A DNA stretch of 64,000 nucleotides from Candidatus Omnitrophota bacterium. GTDB taxonomy: Bacteria > Omnitrophota > Gorgyraeia > JABMRN01 > RBG-13-46-9. Location of the stretch: assembly GCA_013203315.1 (NCBI GenBank), contig JABMQJ010000020.1, forward strand, positions 1 to 64,000, read 5' to 3'. Position numbers and translations under genes: made by a program. Below are positions 1,235 through 25,298 of the stretch, one piece after another; the first letter of the stretch is position 1, and each line of letters starts with the position of its first letter. The notes under the pieces were generated by a model. That model was not told where the DNA came from, did not search any database, and worked only from the letters and a program-made list of their open reading frames with translations.

Positions 1235-1269
1235 ATTAAAAACCCCTCGTTAAGAGGGGTTTTTAATTT
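1233..1269 (-). terminator. Intrinsic terminator after tmRNA
   Basis: aaattaaaaacccctc-gttaa-gaggggtttttaattt immediately 3' of the ssrA CCA end. Confidence 0.75.
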
Positions 1270-1652
1270 GGTGGAGGTGGAGGGATTCGAACCCTCGTCC
1301 CCGAACTCTACCCAAGAAGTGTCTACATGTTTAGTCTGACTTTTGTCTTTTTCTTTCTGACTCCGTAAAACTGGATTCAGAAAGAAGCAGCTTCTGTCAA
1401 TTTAGCTCAAAAGTCCGAAGCCGACCCTTAAGCTTGCCTTTATTATGAACTCCTATTTAGCTTATAAGGCTAAAGCTAATGGAGCTGTTCCTGCAAATTG
1501 AGGAACATGTAACGCATCCGAGGCTATGATTGCCTCGGCCTCAGCTACTGCTTCGTTTGCGTTTATTTATCGCCAGGTGTTTAAAGAGGCCTCCCAGCAA
1601 CCTCTACATGCTGCTTCTCGACCAAAAATCCGGGTCGATACCTTTCACCCCC
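1269..1652 (-). ncRNA. ssrA: tmRNA (one-piece, 384 nt)
   Basis: 5' GGGGGTGAAAGGTATCGAC; 3' GGGTTCGAATCCCTCCACCTCCACCA with G3:U70 Ala identity pair; adjacent to smpB; tag frame from GCA at 1560 to TAA at 1464-1462. Confidence 0.95.
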
Positions 1653-2600: not shown

Positions 2601-2684
2601 TGCGGAAGGGGGGAGTTGAACCCCCATGAGATTGCTCCCACATGGCCCTGAACCATGCGCGTCTGCCAATTCCGCCACTTCCGC
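2601..2684 (-). tRNA. tRNA-Leu (anticodon CAG), CCA not encoded
   Basis: GCGGAAGTGGCGGAATTGGCAGACGCGCATGGTTCAGGGCCATG...GGTTCAACTCCCCCCTTCCGCA; long variable arm. Confidence 0.95.
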
Positions 2685-4235: not shown

Positions 4236-5886
4236 TCTTGGTCCTTACTTTTAAAACTTTTACTCCCGGCGGTACTTTATTTGTGAGAAGCACCTTTTTC
4301 CCGTATTGATACACCACGTAAGTGGGCCTGTCGTAGGGTGTTTTTTCGTCGGTATAAAGCTGAATGTGATTTTTCTCCTTGATGATGCACCAGACGCGTT
4401 CATTTCTTTTTAAAAGCTTTGTGATAACGTCGTGCGAGTGAACATCCGGGGTGTCTTCCCTGTTAGTGTAAAACGCAACGCCCCTCCTGTAACGCGTCTC
4501 AGCGCCAAGTACTTCTCCCGGCTTTATAAGCGTAAGCGCTTTCTCGGATATCTCCTTAGCGGCTACGTATTTTCCTATTTCGGGCAAAACATAGTATGAC
4601 AATGGAAACGCAATGATCAAAAAAGACAGCATAAAAATAATAAGCCCGGTTTTGTATCTTTTTTTTAGCATCACTACCAAAAAAATAGTCATGAGCAGGA
4701 TAAATATCACCCCGGTTATAAGCGTAGGATTCGCAGCAGCCGGATACCTCATTTTTGTAGCGATATAAAGCCCGATTATCCCGCCAACCGGTATTATGGC
4801 AAACGCAAATAAGGAGATACGCATTACCGCATTTTGCTTTTTGCTAAAATTTTTCTTTAGAAAAACGTCCCACGTCCGGCCCAATAGCAAGGCAAGTGCC
4901 GGATAGAGAGGAAATATGTACGTCGGAAGTTTTGTCCGTGAAATCGAGAAAAATATGAGTATGACGCTAAACCAGACGGCTAAAAAAAGGTTCGCGCTTC
5001 TAATTCTTTTTTCTTTTTCTCTTACGGCCTGCCATATGCCAAGCGGCAAAAATGCTGTCCACGGGAAAAATCCGACTGCTATGACAGGAACATAATAATA
5101 AAAGTAGTCGCCCCACTTGTGTTCCGGGTGTAAAAAACGGGTTATATTGTGAAATCCGAAAAATACGTCTATAAATTCCTTTCCGTGCACCCTGTGCATA
5201 AGAATATACCACGGTACGGCTACGACCAAAAATAATAGTGTTCCGCGTATAAACGGTATTTCCTTCAGCCTCTTGAAATTAAGTTCTTTTGCCAGAACAA
5301 AATAAATGCCGATTATAACGAACGGTAAAAATACGCCGACAGGGCCCTTTGTAAGAACAGATAGCCCGAGAAAACAGGCTGACAAAAGATACCACTTTGT
5401 TTTCCCGGATTTTGCAAAGTATCCGTAAAAAAAGAATAAAAAAGATGCCAGCGTCAGGACGCCTAGTGCTATGTCCGTAACGCAGGCCCTTGATAAAACC
5501 AGGTATTTTACGCATGTAGCCAGAACTAGCCCTGCGAAGAATCCGGTCCTTTTATTCACAAATAGCTTCCCGAGTAAATAGACGCAAATTACACCCAGAA
5601 TGCCTATTACGCAGGACGGAAATCTTGCCGAGAACTCATTTACGCCGAAAGCCCTGAAGCTTAATACGACGAGCCAATAATAAAGTGGTGGTTTCTCAAA
5701 TTGCGGCTTGCCGAATATGTAGGGCGTAAGAAACTCATCGCGGCTTAGCATCTCCCTGGCGGTTTCAGCGTAAAACACTTCATCCGGATCCGTAAGAGGC
5801 ATGGCGCCCAGCCCTATCAGGAAAAGAGAAGCGCTAAAAAGGACAAGGATGAGGAGTAAGCTAATTTCTTTTTCGAATAACTTCAC
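4222..5886 (-). CDS. ArnT-like (GT83/GT39) integral membrane glycosyltransferase
   Basis: DPDEVFYAETAREM, FEKPPLYYW, LTKGPVG and KLPTYIFP motifs; many transmembrane helices. Confidence 0.9.
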   Translation of the reverse strand: MKLFEKEISLLLILVLFSASLFLIGLGAMPLTDPDEVFYAETAREMLSRDEFLTPYIFGKPQFEKPPLYYWLVVLSFRAFGVNEFSARFPSCVIGILGVICVYLLGKLFVNKRTGFFAGLVLATCVKYLVLSRACVTDIALGVLTLASFLFFFYGYFAKSGKTKWYLLSACFLGLSVLTKGPVGVFLPFVIIGIYFVLAKELNFKRLKEIPFIRGTLLFLVVAVPWYILMHRVHGKEFIDVFFGFHNITRFLHPEHKWGDYFYYYVPVIAVGFFPWTAFLPLGIWQAVREKEKRIRSANLFLAVWFSVILIFFSISRTKLPTYIFPLYPALALLLGRTWDVFLKKNFSKKQNAVMRISLFAFAIIPVGGIIGLYIATKMRYPAAANPTLITGVIFILLMTIFLVVMLKKRYKTGLIIFMLSFLIIAFPLSYYVLPEIGKYVAAKEISEKALTLIKPGEVLGAETRYRRGVAFYTNREDTPDVHSHDVITKLLKRNERVWCIIKEKNHIQLYTDEKTPYDRPTYVVYQYGKKVLLTNKVPPGVKVLKVRTKNDPY

Positions 5887-5910
5887 TTCTTTTGTTTACT
5901 CACTATTTTA

Positions 5911-6492
5911 TTAAGAAAAAATCTTTCTTGATTTTATTTTTGAATAGATCCACGCTGCCGTAATAAGCTTAGCGGCTGTTCCGGGAATAAAAGGGATAAA
6001 TCCCATGGACACTGCTTTCGTGAAACCGGCCCTGTAGCCGACAGCAAGCCATGTAATTCCGCATGCAAAAATAACCAAAATCCCCATAGACATCGCGAAC
6101 AGGATGTAGGAAAGGTTAGCTGAATCACGTTTTCTGTCAACGATCGCGCCCACAACAAAAGATGCCGCGATAAACCCTACAAGATATCCGCCTGTCGGCC
6201 CTGCCAGATGCAGGAAACCTGCCCCGTACCCTTGAAATATCGGCATGCCCAGAACGCCAAGCCCCACGTAAGAGGCCTGAGCAAGAGATCCCAGTTTTCT
6301 ACCAAGCATGGCGCCGCATAAAATGACAAAGAAAGTCTGAAGCGTTATGGGCACAGGGCTAAACGGAATAGGAATCCGTACATACGCACCGAGCGCCGTC
6401 ATTATTATGAAACTTCCTACAAGAATTGCCTTTGTAAGGCTTTTGTTCAAAGTAATGTCTTTAGCATTTAATATTAAGCTTATAGTACCCAT
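5911..6492 (-). CDS. bioY: Biotin transporter (ECF S-component)
   Basis: PVPITLQT, GPTGGYLVGF and FIPFIP motifs. Confidence 0.92.
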   Translation of the reverse strand: MGTISLILNAKDITLNKSLTKAILVGSFIIMTALGAYVRIPIPFSPVPITLQTFFVILCGAMLGRKLGSLAQASYVGLGVLGMPIFQGYGAGFLHLAGPTGGYLVGFIAASFVVGAIVDRKRDSANLSYILFAMSMGILVIFACGITWLAVGYRAGFTKAVSMGFIPFIPGTAAKLITAAWIYSKIKSRKIFS

Positions 6493-6515
6493 TGCATACC
6501 TCCTACTTTTAGTAA

Positions 6516-6544
6516 AGATTACTATAAAAACACGTTTTTGTCAA
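6516..6544 (-). promoter_or_regulatory. Sigma70-type promoter of the bioY-arnT operon
   Basis: TTGACA-N17-TAATCT. Confidence 0.5.
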
Positions 6545-6569
6545 TTGTGGGTTTTTGAATGGGGGTTTT

Positions 6570-8477
6570 TCAAAATTCGACGCTCGCGCCGCAGTAAGCA
6601 GCAAAACCGGGCATTTTTATATCGCCCTGTTCTGTGTATTCCGTGTTGAAAATATTGCTAAAATTGATAAAAAAACTGGCCTTACCCGTTTCGAACTTCA
6701 CGTCTTTATTGATAGTTGAGTCCAGCAAAAAGTATTTTTCGCTTCCGATTCTTTTTCTGAAGCTAAAGCTGAATTCCTGCGTAAGGCCGAACGGCAGTTC
6801 GTATTCAAGATTAAGGCCGAGGTTGTGTTTTAGGTATTCCAAGACATACTTTGAGGTAATCCCTTTTTTGTCTAACCCTTCCAGATAAGCGTATCGCAGC
6901 GCTATTTTTTTAAGAGGGGTTTTTAAAAGTTTTTGGAAATCAAACGCGAGCGATCCCTCTAAACCCCATATGTCAAATTCGCCTATGTTTTCCGACTGCC
7001 ATACGCTTGATGACGGACTTTCTTTTGTCCAGTCTATGATGTTTTCTGTGTTGCGCAAGAAAGCTGTGCCTTTTACGTTTATGCCATAAGTGGCATAATC
7101 CAAGCCGGCTTCGTAGCTCCAGGCTGTCTCTGGTTTTAGTTCGGAATTGCCTCTATTCGCCGGACTGGAGTAATAAAGTTCCGTAAATGTAGGGGCCCTG
7201 AAAGACCTGGCAATGCCGGCTCTTACTGAAAGCTCGTGGTTTCCGTAATCCTCTCCAAGGAAAGCCGGAAAAACTTCGTATGCGATATTCGCGGACGGAG
7301 AATAATAAGATCCGAATGTAGAGTAACAATCTGTCCGGAAGGACCCGTTTAAAATTAAATTCAAAATTCTACCTTCATACTCCAGAAACGCGCTATTCTT
7401 TAGACGGGAATGCCCGCCCAGGCTTGTGCTGGAAACTTCTTCTTTGCCGAGAAGCCCACCGAGAACTAAATTTCCAAAACTCGTCCTGATTTCTGAATTA
7501 ACTTCGCCGCCGTATAAATACGTGGTATGGTCGCTTCTTGAAAAACTCGGCCTGTTCCGGTCGAGTATGAATTTATCCTGCAGCCTTTTAAAGTAAAAAC
7601 TCGGCGCAACGGATATATTGCCTTTCTCCATTCTGCCCTTGGCGATAAAGAGCCCTGTGTTTATGCTTTCTTCCTCATCCGGGTATCTGCTTGAATAAAA
7701 ACTACCGGCGCCGAATTTCTTTGTGAGATATCCCATGAAAACATCAAGCTCCGCGTCGTCGGCCTCCACCCTGCTGAATGAAGAGGCTGTTAGGGTGTCA
7801 AATTCGGTTTCCGGGGCAAACCCCGTGCTTCTTTTCCATTCTACGGAAGCCCTGCTTTTTAACGGCCCGAGCGGAACGTTTAAAGATGCGAGTCCCGAAT
7901 AAAAATCCCACCATCCCGTGCTTGATGAGGCAAAAAAACCTATTTTATCCCCTGGTTTTCTGGGAACGAAGTTAATGGCACCTCCCAATGCGCCGGAGCC
8001 ATAGGCGCTTGAGGCCGGGCCATGGGTTATATCTATTCGCTTTACGTCATATAACGTAAAAGGTAGGTCCATGTTATGGTGGCCGCTTTTTGGGTCATTT
8101 AAACTAATCCCTTCAAACAAAACAAGGTTTTCCTCAAAAGGCGCGCCCCTTAAGCTTATATCGGCTTGCACGCCGTAAGGCCCCCTCGTCCTGACGTCCG
8201 TTAAGCTGAATTCCTTCAAGATTGACGGAATGGAAAAATGTGATACCGTTTCATCCTTTTCGAGAACAATGGTATCCTGGCTTCGTATGGGCAGCCTCTG
8301 ATCCCCTGAATGGATTCTACTTGAGGTAACTATGACAGGTTCGAGTTTAACGCTTGACCCTTGCGCGCTTTCTTCACCGGAAGCAGACGAAGATGGTACA
8401 ATAAATAGAACTAATAGAATGTAAACCAAAATTTTTCTTTGGGTTAACAAATAGAATAAAAAAAATTTATCTTTCAC
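6570..8477 (-). CDS. TonB-dependent outer membrane receptor (BtuB-like)
   Basis: Signal peptide, TonB-box-like PVIVTSSR, plug motif GPASSAYGSGALGGAINF, SFRAPTFTELY, LKPETAWSYEAG, C-terminal Phe. Confidence 0.9.
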   Translation of the reverse strand: MKDKFFLFYLLTQRKILVYILLVLFIVPSSSASGEESAQGSSVKLEPVIVTSSRIHSGDQRLPIRSQDTIVLEKDETVSHFSIPSILKEFSLTDVRTRGPYGVQADISLRGAPFEENLVLFEGISLNDPKSGHHNMDLPFTLYDVKRIDITHGPASSAYGSGALGGAINFVPRKPGDKIGFFASSSTGWWDFYSGLASLNVPLGPLKSRASVEWKRSTGFAPETEFDTLTASSFSRVEADDAELDVFMGYLTKKFGAGSFYSSRYPDEEESINTGLFIAKGRMEKGNISVAPSFYFKRLQDKFILDRNRPSFSRSDHTTYLYGGEVNSEIRTSFGNLVLGGLLGKEEVSSTSLGGHSRLKNSAFLEYEGRILNLILNGSFRTDCYSTFGSYYSPSANIAYEVFPAFLGEDYGNHELSVRAGIARSFRAPTFTELYYSSPANRGNSELKPETAWSYEAGLDYATYGINVKGTAFLRNTENIIDWTKESPSSSVWQSENIGEFDIWGLEGSLAFDFQKLLKTPLKKIALRYAYLEGLDKKGITSKYVLEYLKHNLGLNLEYELPFGLTQEFSFSFRKRIGSEKYFLLDSTINKDVKFETGKASFFINFSNIFNTEYTEQGDIKMPGFAAYCGASVEF

Positions 8478-14534: not shown

Positions 14535-15428
14535 ATGAAAAAAACTCTTTTAATTTTCCTATTTCTTGCTATTGCTTTATACTCTTTTCCACAAAACGCA
14601 TTCGGAGGAGCGTGGACCCTTCCTCAATACAAAGTCTGGGGCGAATATTCCTTTAAGTGGCAATGGGCAAAAGAAGATTTTGGTGACGACTACAAAAAAA
14701 AGAAAAAAGGTCAAGACGCCCGTTCCTGGGATTTCATAATGGAGCCCAAGGTTGAAATAGGCATAACGGACTCATTCAATCTTTTGTGTTCAATGGAATA
14801 TAAAGAAAGTAAATATAAAGAGTATGGCCGTCCGGATGACTGGGGGCCGTATAGAAGAAAAAATAACGGCGTAAGTTACGTAAAGGTCGGGGGCAAATTA
14901 CGGTTCATTGAAGAGCCATGCGTAATAAGCGGTCAAATAAAAGGCTATTTTTATACCGGTTACGGCAACGATCACGGTGATGATCCTGCATATAAAAACC
15001 AGCCTGCCATAGGAGACGGCGATGACGCGCTGGAATTACGTGGCTTGATCGGAAAGAGATTTAAGCTTAATACGCCCCTTGAAGACTGGACATTGCCATG
15101 CTATGCCGGTCTGGAGGCAGGATACAGGTGGCGAAATGCAGCCGTAGCTAATGATATACCTATATTCGTTGAAACCGGCTTTTGGCCGTTTAAATGGCTT
15201 CTTATAAAAACAGAGCTTGATACAATCATAGCCCACCGTGACACGGGTAGCATAGATAAAGACTATGCAGTATGGCGCATAGGCCCCGTATTCCAGATTG
15301 CCGGGGATAGCGCCTTAAGAGAGGGTAAGCGAATACTGAATATCGAGCTTCAATACGGCCTAACCGTATGGGGAAGAGAGACTTCCGCCTATCAGGAACT
15401 TACCCTAAAAATACAGGGTGCGTTTTAG
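14535..15428 (+). CDS. Hypothetical outer-membrane beta-barrel protein
   Basis: Signal peptide, alternating aromatic beta-strands, C-terminal ...LTLKIQGAF. Confidence 0.65.
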   Translation: MKKTLLIFLFLAIALYSFPQNAFGGAWTLPQYKVWGEYSFKWQWAKEDFGDDYKKKKKGQDARSWDFIMEPKVEIGITDSFNLLCSMEYKESKYKEYGRPDDWGPYRRKNNGVSYVKVGGKLRFIEEPCVISGQIKGYFYTGYGNDHGDDPAYKNQPAIGDGDDALELRGLIGKRFKLNTPLEDWTLPCYAGLEAGYRWRNAAVANDIPIFVETGFWPFKWLLIKTELDTIIAHRDTGSIDKDYAVWRIGPVFQIAGDSALREGKRILNIELQYGLTVWGRETSAYQELTLKIQGAF

Positions 15429-15539: not shown

Positions 15540-15648
15540 TTTTTCCGACAAAGGCAAACCATTCCCGAAAGGGTGGGACGCAAAGTCACGGGTCTTCACA
15601 GACCACGTTAAAAGCGTGGCGCTGAAAGGCAGCCGGACCGCCGAAGAA
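15540..15648 (+). promoter_or_regulatory. c-di-GMP-I (GEMM-I) riboswitch 1
   Basis: GGCAAACCATTCCC-GAAA-GGGTGGGACGCAAAG-TCACGGGTCT...GGCAGCCGGACCGCCGAA; G at the Vc2 G20-equivalent position. Confidence 0.9.
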
Positions 15649-15658
15649 ATAAGCGTAT

Positions 15659-15720
15659 TAGCCAGGGTTGCCTGGCTATTTTTATTTCTACCCCGCTCTC
15701 TCGAGAGCGGGGTTTTTGTT
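15659..15720 (+). terminator. Two tandem terminator-like hairpins (expression platform of riboswitch 1)
   Basis: tagccagg-gttg-cctggcta followed by T5, and accccgctctc-tc-gagagcggggt followed by ttttgtt. Confidence 0.7.
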
Positions 15721-15725
15721 AGGCG

Positions 15726-15986
15726 GTGATTAAAATGAAGATAAGTGACAAAAAATTTCACAGGGTAATCGCGGTAATGGATAGAGAGGATATAGATTAC
15801 CTGGATAAGATTGGCAAGGATTCGCTCTTTACTACAGGCGTTAAGCTTTCCAGGATCAAGATTCTTCGCGCCATGGTTGAAGCCATGAAGGAACTTGGCG
15901 TAAACGGAAAGTACGTTAAAACCGAAGAAAAGCTAAAAGACGAGATCCTGAAAAAGCGTGCTCATTATAAAGAAGGTACGATATAG
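15726..15986 (+). CDS. Small ribbon-helix-helix-like DNA-binding protein
   Basis: Beta-strand HRVIAVM, helix DREDIDYLDKIG, turn, helix SRIKILRAMVEAM. The start may be 15735. Confidence 0.6.
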   Translation: MIKMKISDKKFHRVIAVMDREDIDYLDKIGKDSLFTTGVKLSRIKILRAMVEAMKELGVNGKYVKTEEKLKDEILKKRAHYKEGTI

Positions 15987-15995
15987 GGGTATTTT

Positions 15996-16088
15996 GTCCC
16001 GTGAAAAAGGCAAGTCCGCCGAAAGGCGGATACGCAAAGCTACAGGCCTAAGTCAGTAATGCTGATACGGCGGCTGAGTTACCGGAAA
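15996..16088 (+). promoter_or_regulatory. c-di-GMP-I (GEMM-I) riboswitch 2
   Basis: GGCAAGTCCGCC-GAAA-GGCGGATACGCAAAG-CTACAGGCCTAA...GGCGGCTGAGTTACCG, directly followed by the AGGAGG RBS. Confidence 0.85.
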
Positions 16089-16101
16089 GGAGGCAAATAA
16101 A

Positions 16102-16383
16102 ATGAGAAGTGGCAAAAGGATTCTATTAGCGCTCGTTGTCCTTTGGGCCGCGGTTTTCCTGGTTCAAGATGTGGCGTTTTGCCGTTCAACCAGTCTTACA
16201 ACAACGCTCTATATAACGGTGAAGGCGCCTCCAAAAGGTAATATAGCGCCCAGCGATAAGAATCTTGAGGCGGTGGAGAAAATAGCGAAAGATCAGGCAA
16301 TGACAGCGCCTAACATAAAAGATGTTGCGCCTGAAATTAAGTTTTCTGGAGGTAAGATATACACCATAACAGACACGCTTTAA
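16102..16383 (+). CDS. Small secreted protein with pilin-like terminal strands
   Basis: AGGAGG RBS; signal peptide; mature N-terminus STSLTTTLYITV and C-terminus KIYTITDTL. Confidence 0.7.
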   Translation: MRSGKRILLALVVLWAAVFLVQDVAFCRSTSLTTTLYITVKAPPKGNIAPSDKNLEAVEKIAKDQAMTAPNIKDVAPEIKFSGGKIYTITDTL

Positions 16384-19300
16384 TTAGAAGTACTTGATCT
16401 TTATGGTTTTTTTCTCGAGGATAAAGTCTTCGTCTTCCAGCTTATCTTTAGGCTCTACCGTTATGGGCCTACTGGCGCTGGGAGAGGCTAATCGATACTG
16501 CTTAGGCAGGCGTTTGGTATCTATGTTAAGCTCGTATTCGCCGGGGTATACGTATTCAAAAATAAAACTTCCGTCAGAAAAAGAATACGTGTCCCTGTAT
16601 TCCGGGGTAAGGAATATCCGCGCATTCGGAACCGGAATATCAAGGTCTTCCTCAAAAATACCGTTATCGTTAACGTCGACGTATATCTTGCCTTCTATTG
16701 TTCCCGCCGCAACAACGATAAAAGTTGTTTCCGAAGTTTTAAGCTGTTCCACCAAGACATCCTTTGTCGCATCGCCTCTTATCATCATGTCAACAGGAAG
16801 GCCCCTCATGTCTAACCTTACTTTTCTCGAGCCGGGTACTACTTTTTTGATAAATGCCTTACCACCGGCGTTTGTCTGGGCGCTTCTTCCTTCAACAACG
16901 TAAGCAAGGACATCTTTCATGCCTTTGTCGTCCTTATCCATTTTTTTGTTTCCGTTTGCGTCCTCAAAAACATATACCTTTATCCTGCCCCATTTCTCAG
17001 GGGTTGTAATATCAAAAACATGCCTGACAAGAAATAGAACGGACCAATCCTGTGTCGACCTGTAGGTATCGTATAAGTCCATGTTATCGGCTTCGTAGGT
17101 TAGGCTAAGGGTCGTGACCGGCGAAGGGTTATAATCAATGCCCGTGGAAAACGAGAATATAGAGCTGTTAGCTACGGTATCCTGGAAGGCGGTCCGCAAC
17201 CTGCAGTCTCCGGAGAAGCTAAGATAGGGCAGCAAATAATACCTGCCTGAGAGGGTCGTGTTCCATACCGATGAGGTCGGCAGGCCGTTCATTGAGAGTT
17301 GTTTTGTTTTTGTCAAATCCTGATAAAGCCTTATATAAGAACCGTTTAATTCCGGGAAATATTTATACAGGGTAGCGGATGCCATGTGATAAAAATTACT
17401 GCCGGTACTTCCGCCGAGCGGGTCGGCTCTGTAATATTGATATCCCAACTGCAAGGAGGCTGTTCCCATGGTTTTGTAATAATCGAAGGAGTAGGTTTTG
17501 TAATAGCTTCCGGAAGCGTCCTCGTTGCCTCCGTCCGTAAGGTTGCGACCGTAGTTCCAACCGAAAGAAATATTCTGATCATAGGGGAGCCTGTAGTTGA
17601 ACCCCGTGTACGCGCTCCTTGTATACGAGGTAGTCTCGTCTTTGTTGAAAGCGACGTTATCCCTGCTTACGGTTCCCGACATATTGAGGCTAAAGTCTTT
17701 ACTTATTTTAAAGCTTGAACCTATGTCCCAGCCCATGTAGTCCTGATATGTCGTGGGAATACCGATAGACGCGTATTTATCCCCGATAAACTCGAAAGAA
17801 GTGTTCATGTTAAAACGATCGTGCTTGTATTTTATTCCTGTTTTATAATCGAGATCGCTTACAAGTTTATCGCGCTCGTTATCGGGAAAATAGTTTGATT
17901 GGGCATAAGTGTTGTAGAAATTAAAATTCGGAAATACCTGCCAGTCGCTATCCAGTAAATAAACAAAATTCTTTCTCGGATGAGCGGTGGCGCCTGAGTC
18001 CTCTGAAAATTCGGCTTTGTTATATACATACAGTTCCGTCGCGGAAAATTTGAACGTGTCTGTGTCGACCCAATCCTGTTTGGAAGCGTAGAGTTCCCCG
18101 AAATACTTCACGGTACCGCTACCTTCAGACCTGGGGATAGATATAGCGTCCATCTCACCTGCCCAGAAAGTGGCCTTTACGGGGGCGTCCTTCTCGGCGT
18201 AGTCCATTTCAACGCCCCAATACGGCTGCGACTGCGCTCTTACACTGGGAAGTCTCATGTAATTATCAAGTAGCTTCAGCGTGTTGTTGTTCTTGGAAAA
18301 GGATAAGTGCTGGGCATCTTCTTTCCATGTGTGCTTATCCGATGTATCATAGTCCCTCATGCTCAAATGGCCAAAAACATCCAAATCGTGTATCCTGCCA
18401 TTCAGGTAATATTCGTTATACCTCGTGCGCTTTTCTTCAAACATGTCCTCAAAATACCTGAAACTTGCGTCTAGCTTTAAGTCTATGTCGGGTTGATATT
18501 CTGCCGGCAAAAGTTCTTCTCTCACTTCGCGGGGTAATTTGGGGACATCTATTTCTGCTGCCTCTTTCTTCTCTATTTCCTCAAGCGACATCGGGGGCTT
18601 TTCAATCGTGAACATGGTGAGCTCCGGCTTTTCGCCTCTTGTAAATTTCACAAGATTTTCTTCGGGGAAATACTTGTATGAAATGCCGGTTGCATCCTTA
18701 ACTGAGCCCAGGCTTAACAAAAAATTGTCATTATAAATAGCTAAAGGCTTGCGCATGGTAAGAAACGGCTGCTTGCTTACAAGGCCTTCGGTTTTGCCTA
18801 CATTCATTTCGAGGGGGATACCGTCATATCTTATGATAATAACAGTCAGGGCTGCGGGCTTCATAAATGTGAGCCCTATCTGATCGGTAAGCTCTTTAAG
18901 AGGGGTCCAAATCTCGTTTCCCTTGCGCAGGCATGGGCTTTCAAACTCAAATTTTTTACCCGCGAATTCAAAGGCTATATTTCGGTCTATTTCGTAACCG
19001 GAGAAATCATATCCGGTCGGCCTCATCCTTCTTGCCTCCACCCATTCGCCTTCCGGGATTCTTTCCACTTCCTCAACCGTGACTTCAGGGGTTTCCAGGA
19101 AAGCGGGTTCCTCTTCGGTAATAAGCGTTCCTCCAGGAATTTCTTCTTCACGCAAGAGAGCAAGTGGTTCTGTTTCTTCCGGGGTAACCTCCTCGACGGT
19201 AACTTCCGCTATAACTTCCTCTATGGTAAGTCCCTTGACGGCATCTTCTTCGACGGCAACTTCCCTTACGGGCTCTGAGACACGCTCCCTGCGAGTTTTC

Positions 19301-20877
19301 TTCCCGGCAAACTTTTTTCTTAAAGCGTTTATAAAATTTTTGAAACCGTTCAGCATACCGGCGCGCCTTCCGGAGCCGACAAGGGAGGCTTCTGTGGCTG
19401 CCTGCTTTCCGGCTTCCCTGGATAACGCAACGAAATTACCCACCGTTTCAGTATTTTGTTTAAGCCCATCGCCTACTTGTTTGGCGTATTCATTTATGCG
19501 CTGGCTTGGGGATGCTGCCGGTGCAATTTCAGCTTCCTCGGTAACGCTTACAATTTCCTTGGGGGCATCGCCTGTTATGCTTTCTCTTTCGGCGGTTACA
19601 AGGGGTGTAGTACTTGCATAATTTCTTAAACGCGTTGCTGTGCTGTCTAGATTTGCCTTCAAGTCGGTGCGCCTTTCAGAATTAATGAAATATACCTCTT
19701 CGGTTACTTTCCTTCCGACCCCCCTTGATGTCGTAATGAATCTTCCGATATTAATGATTCCGTTTTTTATATATTTTCCGAAATTCGGTAGCTCTCTTTG
19801 GGGCAGGATTCTTTCTCTTTGAGGAGCCATCTCTTGGGGGGCTATTCTTCTTTCCTGGGTTAATCTTTCAGGAACCCTAAGCGGCTTAGAGATTTTCTCT
19901 AATATTGCGGGTTTTTTTACTTCTGCGGCTCGCTTCGGCATGATACTCGCTACCAGTGATGTTGTCGCAGCAGGTTTTCTTTTTGCGGGTTTTGCAATAA
20001 CCGGTTTTTCGACAATCGGCGTTTCCCGGGTAACTTCTTCGATTTCAGGTTCTCTCGTAACTGTGATTTCAGCTGCTTCTTCAAGTTCTTTTATTTTCTC
20101 TTTGCAGCTCCTGACAGCTATTTGTGTCATGTTTTTTGTAATCGATATACGCCTCTTTTTTTCCGGGAAATCTTCCTCGAGGTTATTTAGTATTTTTAAA
20201 ACGGTTTTATAATTTTTAAGCGCTACCAGGAATCTCTGGTTCTCTGCGTCAACGGAGGCTTTTTCTAAAAGACGGGTTATTTTCTCTATTTCCCTGGAAA
20301 ACGTTCTGTCTTCCGCCGCCTTGCCGCTAAGGGCGTCTATTTCGTCTCTTAAAACACTTTCCTTGCTTTCTATGAGGCGTAGGAGAAGTTTGGCCTCTCT
20401 ATTGTCGGAAGCGCCTTTTAAAACGAATTCTATCTCGGTTCTGGCGTGGCTATACTTCTTAAGCGCGACGTAATAACGGCCTTCGTTTTTCTGGTCTTCC
20501 GCGGTGTCGATTAGATTATATGCGTTTTCCAGTTTTTCTTTATATGTATATTTGCTGTTAATATCTTGTTCAATATGGCGTATCTGGGTCTTACATTCTT
20601 CGATTTTATTTTCCGTGAGATCTTTTAAAAGTGATATACGCTTATTTTGCGGTTCGCTATCCAGGATGTTTCGGGCAATTGCCAGCGCTTCTTCGTACTT
20701 TTGCAGGGCAAACATGAATCTCTGGTCTTCATAAAAACAAGCGCCTTCTTCGACAAGGCTTAAAACGTCGTTTTCGTTTCCGCTGATTTTGGCATAGGAG
20801 TACCCCCAGGAGCCAAAAGTTATAAAAAGGCTCATGATCAAAGTCAACGAAATTAACGAAATCTGCCTTTTTCTCAT
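16384..20877 (-). CDS. Usher-like outer membrane protein (1497 aa)
   Basis: Signal peptide, three helical repeats, acidic linker, copper-amine-oxidase-N-like domain, long beta-barrel region, two C-terminal SdrD-B-like domains (VFEDANGNKKMD; IYVDVNDNGIFE), ends IKYF; follows the chaperone and pilin genes. Confidence 0.7.
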   Translation of the reverse strand: MRKRQISLISLTLIMSLFITFGSWGYSYAKISGNENDVLSLVEEGACFYEDQRFMFALQKYEEALAIARNILDSEPQNKRISLLKDLTENKIEECKTQIRHIEQDINSKYTYKEKLENAYNLIDTAEDQKNEGRYYVALKKYSHARTEIEFVLKGASDNREAKLLLRLIESKESVLRDEIDALSGKAAEDRTFSREIEKITRLLEKASVDAENQRFLVALKNYKTVLKILNNLEEDFPEKKRRISITKNMTQIAVRSCKEKIKELEEAAEITVTREPEIEEVTRETPIVEKPVIAKPAKRKPAATTSLVASIMPKRAAEVKKPAILEKISKPLRVPERLTQERRIAPQEMAPQRERILPQRELPNFGKYIKNGIINIGRFITTSRGVGRKVTEEVYFINSERRTDLKANLDSTATRLRNYASTTPLVTAERESITGDAPKEIVSVTEEAEIAPAASPSQRINEYAKQVGDGLKQNTETVGNFVALSREAGKQAATEASLVGSGRRAGMLNGFKNFINALRKKFAGKKTRRERVSEPVREVAVEEDAVKGLTIEEVIAEVTVEEVTPEETEPLALLREEEIPGGTLITEEEPAFLETPEVTVEEVERIPEGEWVEARRMRPTGYDFSGYEIDRNIAFEFAGKKFEFESPCLRKGNEIWTPLKELTDQIGLTFMKPAALTVIIIRYDGIPLEMNVGKTEGLVSKQPFLTMRKPLAIYNDNFLLSLGSVKDATGISYKYFPEENLVKFTRGEKPELTMFTIEKPPMSLEEIEKKEAAEIDVPKLPREVREELLPAEYQPDIDLKLDASFRYFEDMFEEKRTRYNEYYLNGRIHDLDVFGHLSMRDYDTSDKHTWKEDAQHLSFSKNNNTLKLLDNYMRLPSVRAQSQPYWGVEMDYAEKDAPVKATFWAGEMDAISIPRSEGSGTVKYFGELYASKQDWVDTDTFKFSATELYVYNKAEFSEDSGATAHPRKNFVYLLDSDWQVFPNFNFYNTYAQSNYFPDNERDKLVSDLDYKTGIKYKHDRFNMNTSFEFIGDKYASIGIPTTYQDYMGWDIGSSFKISKDFSLNMSGTVSRDNVAFNKDETTSYTRSAYTGFNYRLPYDQNISFGWNYGRNLTDGGNEDASGSYYKTYSFDYYKTMGTASLQLGYQYYRADPLGGSTGSNFYHMASATLYKYFPELNGSYIRLYQDLTKTKQLSMNGLPTSSVWNTTLSGRYYLLPYLSFSGDCRLRTAFQDTVANSSIFSFSTGIDYNPSPVTTLSLTYEADNMDLYDTYRSTQDWSVLFLVRHVFDITTPEKWGRIKVYVFEDANGNKKMDKDDKGMKDVLAYVVEGRSAQTNAGGKAFIKKVVPGSRKVRLDMRGLPVDMMIRGDATKDVLVEQLKTSETTFIVVAAGTIEGKIYVDVNDNGIFEEDLDIPVPNARIFLTPEYRDTYSFSDGSFIFEYVYPGEYELNIDTKRLPKQYRLASPSASRPITVEPKDKLEDEDFILEKKTIKIKYF

Positions 20878-20967: not shown

Positions 20968-21792
20968 TTACTTTACGTTAAAACTTATTTGCCCCCCTAG
21001 GTAATCTTCTCCTCCGTAATCGAGAACTGCCTGAACAAAATACTCTCCCGGCGCAAGCTTCTTTTTGTCATACCTAACTGTAAACTCCCTATTCGTCCGG
21101 GGGAATATGCCGCCGTCCTGCGAATTAAGTAGGAGTTCGGCTACTTCGGTTTTCGAAGAATCTATTATTTTAACCGGGCCGCTTGGTCTTACAAGAATAT
21201 TGCTGTTATTTCTTACCGTGCAGCTTATGTCAAAAGCGCCGTCTTCATCGGGTTTGCTCACCTTTAAACCCTGGAGCTCTACATCATAGCTTTCAGCGCC
21301 TTTAACCGTTACCAAAAAGATTGATCCGAGCCTTATATTTATTGATGCCCCGGTCGTGGCGCTTAACTCATCTGCAGGCGGTGATATTTCAAAAAACACA
21401 ACGCCGTATCTGCCGCCCTTGGCATCTTCCGGAACTTCTACGACATAGCGCACCTTCATCTGGTCCGAAGGTCCCAGATCAAATTCTGTGGGGCCTATTT
21501 TAAGCCAGTCAGCGGCGGTCCAGGGCGTAGTTCCTTCCGGCAGAAAATCATTGCTTCCATCCGGCGCGTAAACAAGGTCGTTTACATAGACCTTTACATG
21601 TATCGTCTCGTTCTGATCGTAGTTGAGAACGGTTACATACCCGCTCTCAGTACCGCCGGGACTAATGGATAGCTTTACCCTCGGCGGATCTATGTTCATT
21701 TTTATCGCATAAGCGGAAAAATTCATTAAAAATAGAAAAATAACTATAGTGCATGCAAATATCGGTTTTTTTATAAACTTAGCAAAACTCAT
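20968..21792 (-). CDS. Periplasmic pilus chaperone (PapD-N/DUF916-like, two Ig domains)
   Basis: Signal peptide; IDPPRV, VTVLN, DWLKIGPTEFDLGP, VRYVV; second domain VRNNSNILVRP...PGEYFVQAVLDYG. Confidence 0.75.
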   Translation of the reverse strand: MSFAKFIKKPIFACTIVIFLFLMNFSAYAIKMNIDPPRVKLSISPGGTESGYVTVLNYDQNETIHVKVYVNDLVYAPDGSNDFLPEGTTPWTAADWLKIGPTEFDLGPSDQMKVRYVVEVPEDAKGGRYGVVFFEISPPADELSATTGASINIRLGSIFLVTVKGAESYDVELQGLKVSKPDEDGAFDISCTVRNNSNILVRPSGPVKIIDSSKTEVAELLLNSQDGGIFPRTNREFTVRYDKKKLAPGEYFVQAVLDYGGEDYLGGQISFNVK

Positions 21793-22292
21793 AATACCTC
21801 CACCATAATGAACCTGATATGTGACGTATAAGAACCTGCTGCTTGGTATTTTGGAATTTGTAAGTTATATTTGAGTTTTATCTGAACCGTTGTGCCCGTA
21901 TTATCACTGCCTGAGCTTGTATATATCAATACCGGTCTCGTCGCGAAATCGCCGGGACTGCCAACGCTGTTTGAAACAAGTCCTCCGCCGTTTACCACCT
22001 GCTCTACTATCCACTGCATGTTCTCCGCCGGTATGGAATGCTGAGCGCTTGTAAACGGGCGCATCATCTGTACCTTAAAATACCACGTTCTTTCGTTATC
22101 GGAGGTAAAATCGAACCTGTGTTCGTAATTACCTTTTCTTGTAATCGATTTTTTTTCGTTCATTTGCATGGTTCCGAAATCAATCGTTTGAAAGCCTTCA
22201 CCTAACGACATTTCAAAGGTCGCAAAAGATCTTGCCTCCATTAGGACTAGAAGCATAAAAACTAAAATAATGAAAATCGGCTTTTTAATCAT
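21789..22292 (-). CDS. Minor pilin-like subunit (class B)
   Basis: Signal peptide; IDFG, TWYFKV; C-terminal AGSYTSHIRFIM. Confidence 0.7.
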   Translation of the reverse strand: MIKKPIFIILVFMLLVLMEARSFATFEMSLGEGFQTIDFGTMQMNEKKSITRKGNYEHRFDFTSDNERTWYFKVQMMRPFTSAQHSIPAENMQWIVEQVVNGGGLVSNSVGSPGDFATRPVLIYTSSGSDNTGTTVQIKLKYNLQIPKYQAAGSYTSHIRFIMVEVL

Positions 22293-22296
22293 CGCT

Positions 22297-22848
22297 TTAC
22301 TCTGTCTCCGTAATAAGATATGCTACTTTCAGGCCGTAATGGCCTCCCATCGCCGAACCCGGCAAATCAAGCTTGTATTGGAATCGCAATATGAGCTCTT
22401 TCCCTATCTCATCTTCTGTGTCGCTTGTATATACAACCTGCGGTTCATCTGAAAATTCCTGCCAACCGGGCGCTGCTATCCCGCGGCCATCTGTATGGTA
22501 TATGCGCCATTTAAAGCTTTCTGGCGGTATCTGATTCCCTTTTGGGCCTATAACTTCATTAAGAATATGTATTTTTACGTAATATTTTCTTCCCTTGTTG
22601 GCAGCACACTTTATTGTATTGTAATATGTGCCTTCTTTTAATGTTACACTATCTCCGGGGTTAACAACGCCAAAATTAATATAATTATTATCAATATTTA
22701 TATCGAAAACGGGAAGGACTACAACTGAGGCAAATATATCTTCTATGTCCTCATCTGCATTGCAAATACAAGGCACCAGGACAGCAAAAACCACCACCAA
22801 TGATGCAAAAACCCCTATTATATTACACTTAGCTCTATATATAGTCAT
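22297..22848 (-). CDS. Minor pilin-like subunit (class B)
   Basis: Signal peptide; INFG, KYYVKI; C-terminal GGHYGLKVAYLITE; paralog of the 21789 gene. Confidence 0.7.
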   Translation of the reverse strand: MTIYRAKCNIIGVFASLVVVFAVLVPCICNADEDIEDIFASVVVLPVFDINIDNNYINFGVVNPGDSVTLKEGTYYNTIKCAANKGRKYYVKIHILNEVIGPKGNQIPPESFKWRIYHTDGRGIAAPGWQEFSDEPQVVYTSDTEDEIGKELILRFQYKLDLPGSAMGGHYGLKVAYLITETE

Positions 22849-22957: not shown

Positions 22958-23551
22958 TTAAGGTGCCGTTGTCATCGTATATGTTACCGACACCGTATAT
23001 GTCCGTTCGGCACTAAGCCCTCTTGGGTCAACGCCAAAGCTAAAAGTTGAGAGCGTTCCGAATGGCGTATTGACCGTATCCAGAGACCCGGAGGTATAGA
23101 TATTTGACGATTCCGTAGGTATCGGCGTCCATTCTACGCTGCCGGCTAGGGTTCCGTCTGTTTGCTGGTTTGCGTTCCTATCCCACGGTTGTGTATAATA
23201 GTACTTTGCGTTACCGGCAAACAAGCCTTCTGAATATACCCCCTGCATTTTTAAATACCATGGCACGCCCATATTACTGATACACACTACCCCTGTATCG
23301 CTCTTTCCGTCATCCTCTTTTCTTCCGTTAGGATATACCAAAGATTTTGTGGGGTCAACATTGCTGAACGGCACGGCTGTAGAGTATATCACGCTCGCGT
23401 CAGTATAAAATTCCATTGAAAATATACTTGTCGCGGTAACGGTGACGTTTGTCGTAAGAGAGCTGTCTAGAGCTATTGCGTTGCTCTGCGCTATCAGAAA
23501 AACGGCCACCAGGGCTAAGATCTTTATATCTATCATTTTATACAAAGACAC
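22958..23551 (-). CDS. Pilin-like subunit (class A)
   Basis: Signal peptide; SIFSMEFYTD, DDGKSD, PWYLKM; C-terminal YTVSVTYTMT. Confidence 0.75.
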   Translation of the reverse strand: MSLYKMIDIKILALVAVFLIAQSNAIALDSSLTTNVTVTATSIFSMEFYTDASVIYSTAVPFSNVDPTKSLVYPNGRKEDDGKSDTGVVCISNMGVPWYLKMQGVYSEGLFAGNAKYYYTQPWDRNANQQTDGTLAGSVEWTPIPTESSNIYTSGSLDTVNTPFGTLSTFSFGVDPRGLSAERTYTVSVTYTMTTAP

Positions 23552-23730: not shown

Positions 23731-24309
23731 TTATGCTGTTTCGGTTAACGTATAGGTAATCGTACCAGTATAGGGACCGGGTGCCAATCCTGAGCCATCA
23801 ACCTTGAAGCTCAAAGTTGCCAGTGTTCCCTCCGGTGTATTGGTTTCGTCTGCGGTTCCAGCTGTGTATAAAGTTACAGCAGCGCCCGTGAGATCGAACC
23901 AGGTTAGATCACCATATGTTCGGCCACCATCTGCAGGTGTACCCCAGTTTCGGTTCGTAGGTTGGCCCATGTTACCGGCCAATTTTGTAAGAAGCGGTGA
24001 TGCAGCGTTCATTGCGATTTTCAAATACCAAGGATTTCCCTGGTTTGATTTTATCGTAAGACCTACATCTGATTTACCGTCATCTTGTGCTCTTCCGTCT
24101 GCATAGTTGTATGCACTTGACGGGTCTACAGTGGAAAACGGAATGGCTGTCGAATACAGTACATTCGCGTCCGTGTAAAACGCCATCGAGAATATGCTAC
24201 CAACTGATGCAGTAACGTTTGAATTGAGTGTCTGGTCAGCTGCATAAGAAGCACCTGCTATCGCGATTGCGAATAGCATTACCATAGATGTAATCACTAG
24301 TTTTTTCAT
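23731..24309 (-). CDS. Probable major pilin subunit (class A)
   Basis: GGAGGTG RBS before MKKLVITS (24309); signal peptide; SIFSMAFYTD, DDGKSD, PWYLKI; C-terminal GPYTGTITYTLTETA; own promoter and downstream stem-loop. Confidence 0.78.
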   Translation of the reverse strand: MKKLVITSMVMLFAIAIAGASYAADQTLNSNVTASVGSIFSMAFYTDANVLYSTAIPFSTVDPSSAYNYADGRAQDDGKSDVGLTIKSNQGNPWYLKIAMNAASPLLTKLAGNMGQPTNRNWGTPADGGRTYGDLTWFDLTGAAVTLYTAGTADETNTPEGTLATLSFKVDGSGLAPGPYTGTITYTLTETA

Positions 24310-24390
24310 TTTGTTCACCTCCTTTGTTTTGTTTTTAAATTGTTTTAGTAACCCTTTATTTAGCATTTCTGTTTTTCCCATCATGTCTTT

Positions 24391-24581: not shown

Positions 24582-25184
24582 TCACGCTGAAAGCGTCATC
24601 GTAAACTGAATTTGACACGCATAATTATTGTTAGCGTCTAGCTGGCTTGGGTTAATCGCAAAACTGAAACCGCAGAGGGTGCCCTGCTGCCATGTTTCAG
24701 CGCCCATATTATTTAAATCGTTGGCTCCTGCTGTAAAAATTCTCGCAGGTGATGTGGGAAGGGGCTGCCATCCTTCTATCAGTGCTCCGTTTGAAGACTG
24801 GCCATACCTCATGTTCCATGGTCGCCAAAAACCGTACTTTACCTGCTCTAGGAAAAAACCGCCCGGGCTTCCCTGAATCTTTAAATACCAGGTTTCACCA
24901 AGGTTGCTTTTGCATAATAGGCCTATGTCGTTGTTCCCGTCACCCTGAGAACGATTATCAGCCTGGACCCATGTTTTTGTAGGATCCATATTTGTAAAGG
25001 AAACCTGCGTGGTATATAGATATTTACTAGGTTCGCCCGTATAGAACTCCATCATAAAAATATTGCTAACATCAAAGCTACCTGCAGCTATTACGGTTCT
25101 TGTTTCAGCAAAAGAAGATTGGCCTACAAAGCTTGCGGCCGTTACAGTCAGTAAAAGAGTGGTTATTAAAAATATTTTTTTCAT
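24582..25184 (-). CDS. Pilin-like subunit (class A; possible tip or minor subunit)
   Basis: G-rich RBS before MKKIFLIT (25184); NIFMMEFYT, DGNND, TWYLKI; C-terminal YACQIQFTMT. Confidence 0.72.
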   Translation of the reverse strand: MKKIFLITTLLLTVTAASFVGQSSFAETRTVIAAGSFDVSNIFMMEFYTGEPSKYLYTTQVSFTNMDPTKTWVQADNRSQGDGNNDIGLLCKSNLGETWYLKIQGSPGGFFLEQVKYGFWRPWNMRYGQSSNGALIEGWQPLPTSPARIFTAGANDLNNMGAETWQQGTLCGFSFAINPSQLDANNNYACQIQFTMTLSA

Positions 25185-25298
25185 ATTAGCCCCCCTTAGT
25201 ATCGTTTTATATTCTAACAAAAAAAATGTGCAAAGTAAACAAAAAAAGCTGACTTTTTCATATCTAACTTATTTTTAATAACCCTTAGCCCTTTATCA

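Follow-up and report, generated by a model that had tools for sequence, protein, structure and literature searches.

We identified a small gene in an Omnitrophota genome (positions 16102-16383, forward strand, of the 64,000-nucleotide stretch analyzed here, which we call the window) whose product may be a mini-subunit of the neighboring fiber system that consists of little besides a donor strand and serves as a cap, either as a terminator or as an anchor. We give this reading even odds. A fuller version, which we put forward more tentatively, is that this orphan donor strand of 66 amino acids (aa) ends or anchors the chains of an undescribed Omnitrophota fiber assembled by donor-strand exchange, and that its dose is set by tandem c-di-GMP riboswitches. 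The argument draws on synteny, on conservation, and on a single co-fold that is strong but purely computational.

The mini-gene is real and under selection. Its dN/dS ratio is 0.30, 0.22 and 0.24 when the genome of the window (G000) is compared with G001, G003 and G016, respectively, the three pairs in which dS could be estimated. These ratios, together with 13 small relatives among 1.84 billion representative sequences, rule out a non-coding or chance open reading frame (ORF). The product is a 93-aa precursor with a signal peptide (residues 1-27; 16102-16182), predicted to be cleaved after Cys27 to leave a mature protein of ~66 residues that starts at R28 (RSTSLTTT...). This agrees with the cleavage region given in the initial annotation and moves the exact start upstream by one residue. 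Cys27 is invariant in the first eight family sequences, and the last signal-peptide position in the wider alignment is Cys in 8 of 22 members and Ala, Gly or Ser in 14 of 22, which indicates a signal-peptidase-I site rather than a lipobox. A lipoprotein was rejected on these grounds, given that no invariant lipobox Cys stands as the first mature residue.

Three parts can be distinguished in the mature protein, all encoded on the forward strand. Residues 28-43 (16183-16230), the predicted donor strand, are the most conserved part of the family in the alignment and form the interface of the co-fold described below. Residues 44-84 (16231-16353) are a variable middle, with one helix (residues 55-64) predicted by the monomer model. 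The C-terminal strand, K-I-Y-T-I-T-D-T-L, occupies 16354-16383 together with the stop codon, which abuts the stop codon of the convergent gene. When folded alone with AlphaFold2, the mini-protein gives a weak model (pLDDT 73) consisting of helix 55-64 and a short hairpin, in which residues 28-45 are unstructured and an Ig fold is absent. The model and the length of ~66 mature residues both bear out the earlier statement that the protein is too short for such a fold.

Relatives of the mini-protein are few. A word-indexed search retrieved eight, of 92-95 aa and with 54-100% identity, and an exhaustive profile search of the 1.84 billion representatives (E <= 1e-3) gave 18 matches, of which 13 are small (74-105 aa) and five are long. 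The five long matches are repeat proteins and were set aside as look-alikes rather than relatives: they align only via a repeated strand ending ...ITVKAPP, a strand of giant repeat proteins that the strand motif of the mini-protein also fits. There is no family for the mini-protein in Pfam or NCBIfam, and ESM Atlas features likewise point to no known family. A sequence profile search of the PDB found no relative (best match E 0.72), and Foldseek with the mini-protein model found no match in the PDB (best E 2.6). The ESM Atlas model of the mini-protein has a pLDDT of 0.47, so its structure matches mean little.

The fiber locus lies next to the mini-gene on the reverse strand. Its last gene (16384-20877) encodes a secreted protein of 1497 aa and is convergent with the mini-gene, whose stop codon (16381-16383) directly abuts that of the large gene (16384-16386), with 0 nt between them. 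The gap between the convergent stop codons is 0-15 nt in most related loci (for example L003 1770/1771, L013 595/606 and L042 5184/5189), and read-through across abutting stops, from either side, would give RNA antisense to the opposite gene. Parts of the 1497-aa protein resemble TPR and Cu_amine_oxidN1, its C-terminal domains resemble CarboxypepD_reg and SdrD_B, and a long stretch of it is rich in beta structure. We found no usher match for this protein in Pfam and no relative in a sequence search of the PDB; its place in the locus makes it a candidate outer-membrane assembly component.

On the same strand, a second gene (20968-21792) encodes a secreted 274-aa protein whose ESM Atlas neighbors point to two Ig-like domains and make it a candidate periplasmic chaperone. 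Among the neighbor clusters shown, one is automatically named PapD chaperone, and further clusters carry WxLIP or fn3_5 on a minority of their members. The protein has no Pfam PapD match at E <= 1 and no relative in a PDB sequence search. Five paralogous fiber subunits of 167-217 aa complete the locus (21789-22292, 22297-22848, 22958-23551, 23731-24384 and 24582-25220, all reverse strand). The subunits match no Pfam or NCBIfam family, and a profile search of the PDB gave no sequence link between them and any solved fiber. The locus had at first been taken for a chaperone-usher system, an identity that we do not retain. Pfam, searched over the whole fiber locus, found no PapD, usher or SCPU domain (the Pfam names for chaperone-usher parts are PapD_N, PapD_C and Usher), so that "chaperone-usher" is an analogy here and not a membership. 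As neither a chaperone family nor an usher family is matched, the order of assembly, and hence the term "terminator", is an analogy as well. The locus is an uncharacterized Omnitrophota type with beta-sandwich subunits, and two homologous subunits that carry Omnitrophota names agree with the placement of the genome in this phylum. Elsewhere in the window are a tmRNA (1269-1652, reverse strand, 173 bits) and a tRNA (2601-2684, reverse strand).

The 197-aa subunit (22958-23551) was modeled as a confident beta-sandwich (pLDDT 89.5) whose first ~13 mature residues are unstructured. The fold matches of this model are TLP-1b (Z 7.4), archaeal cannulae (Z 6.5), TasA (Z 6.1), CfaE/CfaB (Z 6.1), FimA (Z 5.9), PapA (Z 5.7) and Csu (Z 5.4), all of them with Z < 8, a range in which two structures possibly share only a common arrangement. 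The top matches are rich in donor-strand fibers, and Foldseek returned SafA, TLP-1 and CfaB at E 3e-3 to 7e-3.

Strand complementation between the mini-protein and a pilus subunit, an expectation of the initial annotation, is predicted for the one subunit that was tested. We co-folded residues 41-197 of the 197-aa subunit, thus removing its own extension, with residues 28-93 of the mini-protein, and obtained ipSAE values of 0.90, 0.88 and 0.91, against 0.00 for all three controls. The mark used for such co-folds is reached by 116 of 157 solved complexes and by 2 of 215 mismatched pairs, counts that hold only roughly in this case because custom alignments were used, and the score itself is the confidence of the model rather than a measurement. 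At least 63% of the contacts are common to the runs. The pLDDT of the partner is 50-55, which leaves its own fold uncertain, and only residues 28-43 of the mini-protein are placed, residues 44-93 making no confident contact. The placed segment lies antiparallel to the last strand of the subunit, residues 185-193 (pairs 30-193, 32-191, 36-187 and 38-185), and also touch its first strand (residues 44-48) and residues 56-67. The model thus predicts that residues 28-43 are a donor strand lying between the first and the last strand of the subunit, which is the geometry of donor-strand exchange in chaperone-usher pili.

These predictions suggest the following mechanism. After Sec export and cleavage by signal peptidase I, the mini-protein would begin with a strand of ~16 residues that is rich in Thr, hydrophobic at its core and followed by Pro. 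This strand would slot into the cleft that a subunit leaves open between its first and last strands, filling the place of the N-terminal extension of the next subunit. Given that the mini-protein has no cleft of its own, nothing could be added after it, and it would therefore occupy the one fiber end that exposes a cleft. At that end the mini-protein could stop growth, tie the end down, or both, from which we infer its role as terminator or anchor. Two c-di-GMP-I aptamers in series would set the amount of mini-protein, and the second messenger would then tune fiber length or anchoring at the assembly step.

The same predicted insertion would also suit a nucleator or primer resembling TapA, in which case the donated strand would switch a subunit into a fiber-competent fold and start a fiber, and c-di-GMP would control the number of fibers rather than their length. 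Cap, terminator and nucleator look the same from sequence and cannot be told apart by it, since no sequence feature separates nucleation from capping. Two of the fold matches of the subunit, TasA and the cannulae, are chaperone-free fibers, and passages on TapA report that its N-terminus is donated to TasA and that a filament role beyond initiation is unlikely (PMC10151520). However, the presence of a candidate chaperone and a candidate outer-membrane protein points to a guided pathway over self-assembly outside the cell. We regard nucleation as unlikely, while ranking it first among the alternatives to a cap.

Control of the mini-gene by a c-di-GMP riboswitch, also proposed from the outset, is supported by the aptamer found directly before it (15999-16086, forward strand). 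This aptamer matches the c-di-GMP-I model RF01051 over its full length (model positions 1-87 of 87) with 80.6 bits (E 2.8e-14), well past the gathering score of 35, and ends 15 nt upstream of the mini-gene. A Shine-Dalgarno sequence, GGAGG (16089-16093), lies 3 nt past the aptamer and 8 nt before the ATG. We found no terminator-like hairpin between the aptamer and the ATG, and control is therefore probably translational.

A first aptamer of the c-di-GMP-I class is located further upstream (15544-15646, forward strand; RF03167 59.4 bits, with a gathering score of 59, and RF01051 59.1 bits), before a gene that encodes a cytoplasmic protein of 86 aa without a signal peptide (15726-15986, forward strand). 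Two terminator-like hairpins with U-runs lie between this aptamer and the 86-aa gene (15659-15678 and 15690-15713) and likely act as its transcriptional expression platform. The first aptamer, the hairpins, the 86-aa gene, the second aptamer and the mini-gene likely form one unit. Close copies of the 86-aa protein (83-87 aa) are found in the same place in G004, G009 and G306. The protein matches no Pfam or NCBIfam family, and our guess is that it could be a small DNA-binding regulator of the fiber locus. Upstream of both aptamers is a gene for a secreted protein of 297 aa with no family match (14535-15428, forward strand), which is syntenic in G003 and G009.

The direction in which the riboswitch acts is a matter of speculation. 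No clear expression platform emerged when the leader was folded by minimum free energy (z = -1.5). When ten leaders were compared, six had a purine-rich ribosome-binding site 0-2 nt from the 3´ end of the aptamer, and in the remaining four the two elements were separated by a hairpin with a U-run. As judged by eye, the 5´ edge of the aptamer can pair with the ribosome-binding site in G000, G004 and G411, and these would thus be OFF switches. If so, high c-di-GMP might withhold the cap and let the fibers grow.

The 1.5-Mb, 97%-complete genome has five c-di-GMP-I matches, two of them at this site. The other three (C4:3165-3255, C23:37478-37578 and C23:40160-40251) precede, in this order, genes for a 367-aa protein, a 124-aa ORF and a 164-aa protein. 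By eye, the 367-aa and 164-aa proteins have signal-peptide-like N-termini and the 124-aa ORF does not. Beside the fiber locus of G411, a second aptamer (L042 5669-5757) is found before a 352-aa gene (5873-6931), whose product has a signal-peptide-like start and, again by eye, is similar to the 367-aa protein of G000.

The association between the mini-gene and the fiber locus extends well beyond this genome. A mini-like gene is found beside the locus in 14 of the 16 genomes that carry such a locus, and in 12 of these 14 it is convergent with the large gene and 0-90 nt from its end. The leader of the mini-gene contains an aptamer of the c-di-GMP-I class in 12 of the 14, with two aptamers in series in five genomes (G000, G004, G057, G070 and G146). 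The exceptions are G001, where the leader is cut by a contig end, and G336, which has no aptamer before its mini-like ORF. In the diverged locus of G336, an aptamer of this class (L041 4229-4314) precedes the first subunit gene rather than the small convergent ORF. With respect to the two loci outside the 14, that of G066 has no mini-gene on its 7.3-kb contig, and the contig of G062 ends in the first subunit gene and is therefore uninformative about a mini-gene.

These counts combine several searches. A single-sequence search detected the mini-protein in 5 of 61 relatives, and a subunit profile detected the fiber locus in 8 of the 61, including all five mini-protein genomes. In the other three locus genomes, a small, diverged gene that encodes a signal peptide and has an aptamer in its leader adjoins the locus; in G004 and G057 it is convergent with the large gene, and in G041 it lies next to the subunit genes. 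Among 401 genomes of the phylum, a wider mini-protein profile gave 14 matches, eight of them at E <= 1e-4, and the subunit profile gave 12, with both found in seven genomes. No mini-protein match at E <= 1e-4 fell in a genome without a fiber locus. G385 has a mini-protein match and a locus that is too diverged for the subunit profile (HMM E 0.21 and 0.0014) and was recognized by gene order and by eye. G306, G411 and G336 have subunit matches as well as small ORFs with the N-terminal strand at the expected convergent position (HMM E 7.6e-4, 6.2e-4 and 0.087, respectively, in a search of 925 small ORFs). Weak profile matches (E 8e-4 to 5e-3) in G376, G329, G020, G393, G103 and G298 cover the profile partially, within positions 1 to 71, and sit in reading frames of 366-514 aa (four matches), 197 aa and 70 aa; an Rfam scan of three of the six found no aptamer. 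A second match in G003 was dropped because of three internal stops. Co-occurrence of the mini-gene with the fiber locus, which had been suggested as a check on their connection, is thus upheld by the 14 of 16 loci and by the lack of matches at E <= 1e-4 in locus-free genomes.

This pattern speaks against a small secreted member of the c-di-GMP regulon, for example a matrix, signaling or surface peptide, that is unrelated to the fiber locus and only happens to be its neighbor in small, compact genomes. Adjacency persists even where a locus has diverged almost beyond the reach of the subunit profile, and close relatives that lack the fiber locus also lack the mini-gene, as in G012, which belongs to the same genus as G003 and has neither. 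Moreover, a second mini-like gene of G016 (78 aa, L023 4880-5116; HMM E 0.03) is embedded in the subunit operon, where it overlaps the stop and the start of its neighbors; its product begins with the same strand and Pro and has Y-T-V-T at its end. The co-fold, which passed with controls at 0.00, also argues against chance proximity. On the other hand, the remaining three c-di-GMP-I aptamers in the genome lie ahead of other genes, two of them encoding signal-peptide-like stretches, the mini-gene is convergent with the fiber operon rather than part of it, and its product matches no known family or fold. Taking these observations together, we consider an unrelated protein rather improbable, somewhat more so than a nucleator.

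The constant feature of all 14 mini-like genes is a strand directly after the signal peptide. The strand is Thr/Ser-rich, followed by four or five hydrophobic residues and then usually by Pro. The length of the whole protein is 74-105 aa across the family, with a middle part that varies in length. Most members retain a C-terminal Y-T-x-T motif, which is missing from G306 and G411 although both have the N-terminal strand. Conservation of the terminal strands, which the initial annotation made decisive for both ends, therefore applies to the N-terminal strand, the most conserved part of the protein, but not to the C-terminal strand in these two lineages.

We also compared the mini-protein with the subunits themselves, using position-specific scoring matrices from a 36-row subunit alignment to score every ORF of 60 aa or more in the whole genome (4556 in total). 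Against the N-terminal strand of the subunits, the mini-protein ranked 8 of 4556, and the window that scored best fell exactly at the cleavage site. Against the C-terminal 14 residues of the subunits it ranked 12 of 4556, in a list where the five subunit paralogs occupied ranks 1-4 and 8. The element Y-T-hydrophobic-T, at positions -7 to -4 from the C-terminus, is common to the mini-protein and the subunits. Comparison with the subunit profile using hhalign gave a probability of 57% over 36 columns and aligned only the signal peptide and the N-terminal strand; no pilin-length alignment was obtained by profile-profile comparison. The strand of the mini-protein has a consecutive hydrophobic run, in contrast to the strictly alternating pattern of the subunit extensions, and Thr-rich strands are common. 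The likeness of the mini-protein to the subunit termini is thus above chance and in the right register, but short and modest. Of the resemblance first noted at both termini, the N-terminal part persists in this modest form, and the C-terminal part is weaker and lost in two lineages. We found no preference of the mini-protein strand for subunits of its own genome in a crude best-window BLOSUM comparison with subunit N-termini from 13 genomes (mean 18.7, versus 17.4 for other genomes; permutation p = 0.19), a weak test of co-evolution because some of the best windows fell in signal peptides.

A periplasmic decoy or plug, whose C-terminal strand would occupy the 274-aa or the 1497-aa protein and block subunit traffic outside the fiber, would fit the shared distance of Y-T-hydrophobic-T from the C-terminus and the observation that the mini-protein and all four subunits of G041 end in Glu, but is the least probable of the alternatives, given that G306 and G411 lost the C-terminal motif and kept the N-terminal strand and that residues 44-93 made no confident contact in the co-fold with the subunit.

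The capping of a fiber by a single strand, if correct, would have several implications. The accessory proteins that end, anchor or start donor-strand fibers, among them PapH, FimI and TapA, are full domains encoded in an operon with the subunits. Here, the accessory protein would be reduced to little more than a strand and placed under a direct second-messenger RNA switch. It would be the smallest known fiber subunit and the first to be gated by a riboswitch. In this case, c-di-GMP would act on the length or attachment of fibers through their assembly rather than through subunit synthesis, providing a post-translational link, and the system would offer a minimal, testable model of how one strand caps a fiber. 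It would also offer an entry point to a surface structure in a phylum of very small, uncultivated cells about whose lifestyle little is known, and such loci may help explain orphan fibrils like TLP-1 from pond water.

In Clostridioides and Vibrio, c-di-GMP-I (GEMM-I) riboswitches act on the expression of pili, flagella and adhesins. The mini-gene has the same class of aptamer before a gene for an exported protein as is found before genes for exported or surface proteins elsewhere. The difference lies in the controlled product, which elsewhere is a fiber subunit or an adhesin and here would be a 66-aa accessory of a donor-strand fiber. In the full-text literature, a search for c-di-GMP riboswitches together with chaperone-usher systems gave no description of such a combination, the matches being incidental by their titles and the beginnings of their abstracts. 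A search for Omnitrophota together with pili likewise gave no description, by title or beginning of abstract, among the matches listed.

Among its fold matches, the 197-aa subunit comes closest to TLP-1a/b (PDB 9ikj and 9ikk), with a Z of 7.4 and an rmsd of 6.1 Å; for TLP-1b, 144 residues were aligned with 16% identity, and the Foldseek probability was 0.99. The two have no sequence relation in the profile search of the PDB. The passages that describe TLP-1 present it as an orphan fibril from pond water and state that metagenomic sequencing gave no matching sequences (PMC11494351). Its N-terminal strand is reported to be disordered in the predicted monomer and to complete another protomer's Ig-like domain, and these passages speak of a single protein subunit and name no accessory protein or gene context (PMC11494351).

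As an accessory protein whose N-terminus would be the donor strand for a major subunit, which for the mini-protein is a prediction only, the mini-protein resembles TapA of Bacillus subtilis. TapA acts in a Gram-positive, chaperone-free system that, unlike the mini-gene, is not under riboswitch control. Protein database and PDB searches revealed no sequence relation between the mini-protein and TapA, and the mini-protein has no domain after its strand. According to passages on its structure, TapA donates an N-terminal strand to TasA and comprises, in mature residues 44-253, a complete Ig-type domain (PMC10151520).

The mini-protein would also share features with PapH and FimI. Each of these minor components gives its strand to the last subunit and lacks a usable acceptor site, and in this way ends growth and helps to anchor the fiber. 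In chaperone-usher pili, the end with the exposed cleft is the cell-proximal, growing end, and it is there that PapH and FimI act. These are full-size pilin folds delivered by a chaperone, whereas the mini-protein has ~66 aa and no Ig fold, and lacks the complete pilin domain with a non-exchangeable groove that characterizes them. The mini-gene further differs in that it is convergent, outside the operon and behind a riboswitch, beside a locus without a PapD or usher family. Dosage of the accessory protein has a parallel in FimI, which passages of one report describe as a terminator and anchor, with pilus length following the FimI:FimA ratio (PMC10673952). By analogy with these systems, our best reading is that the mini-protein would work like PapH and FimI or like TapA, yet belongs to neither family.
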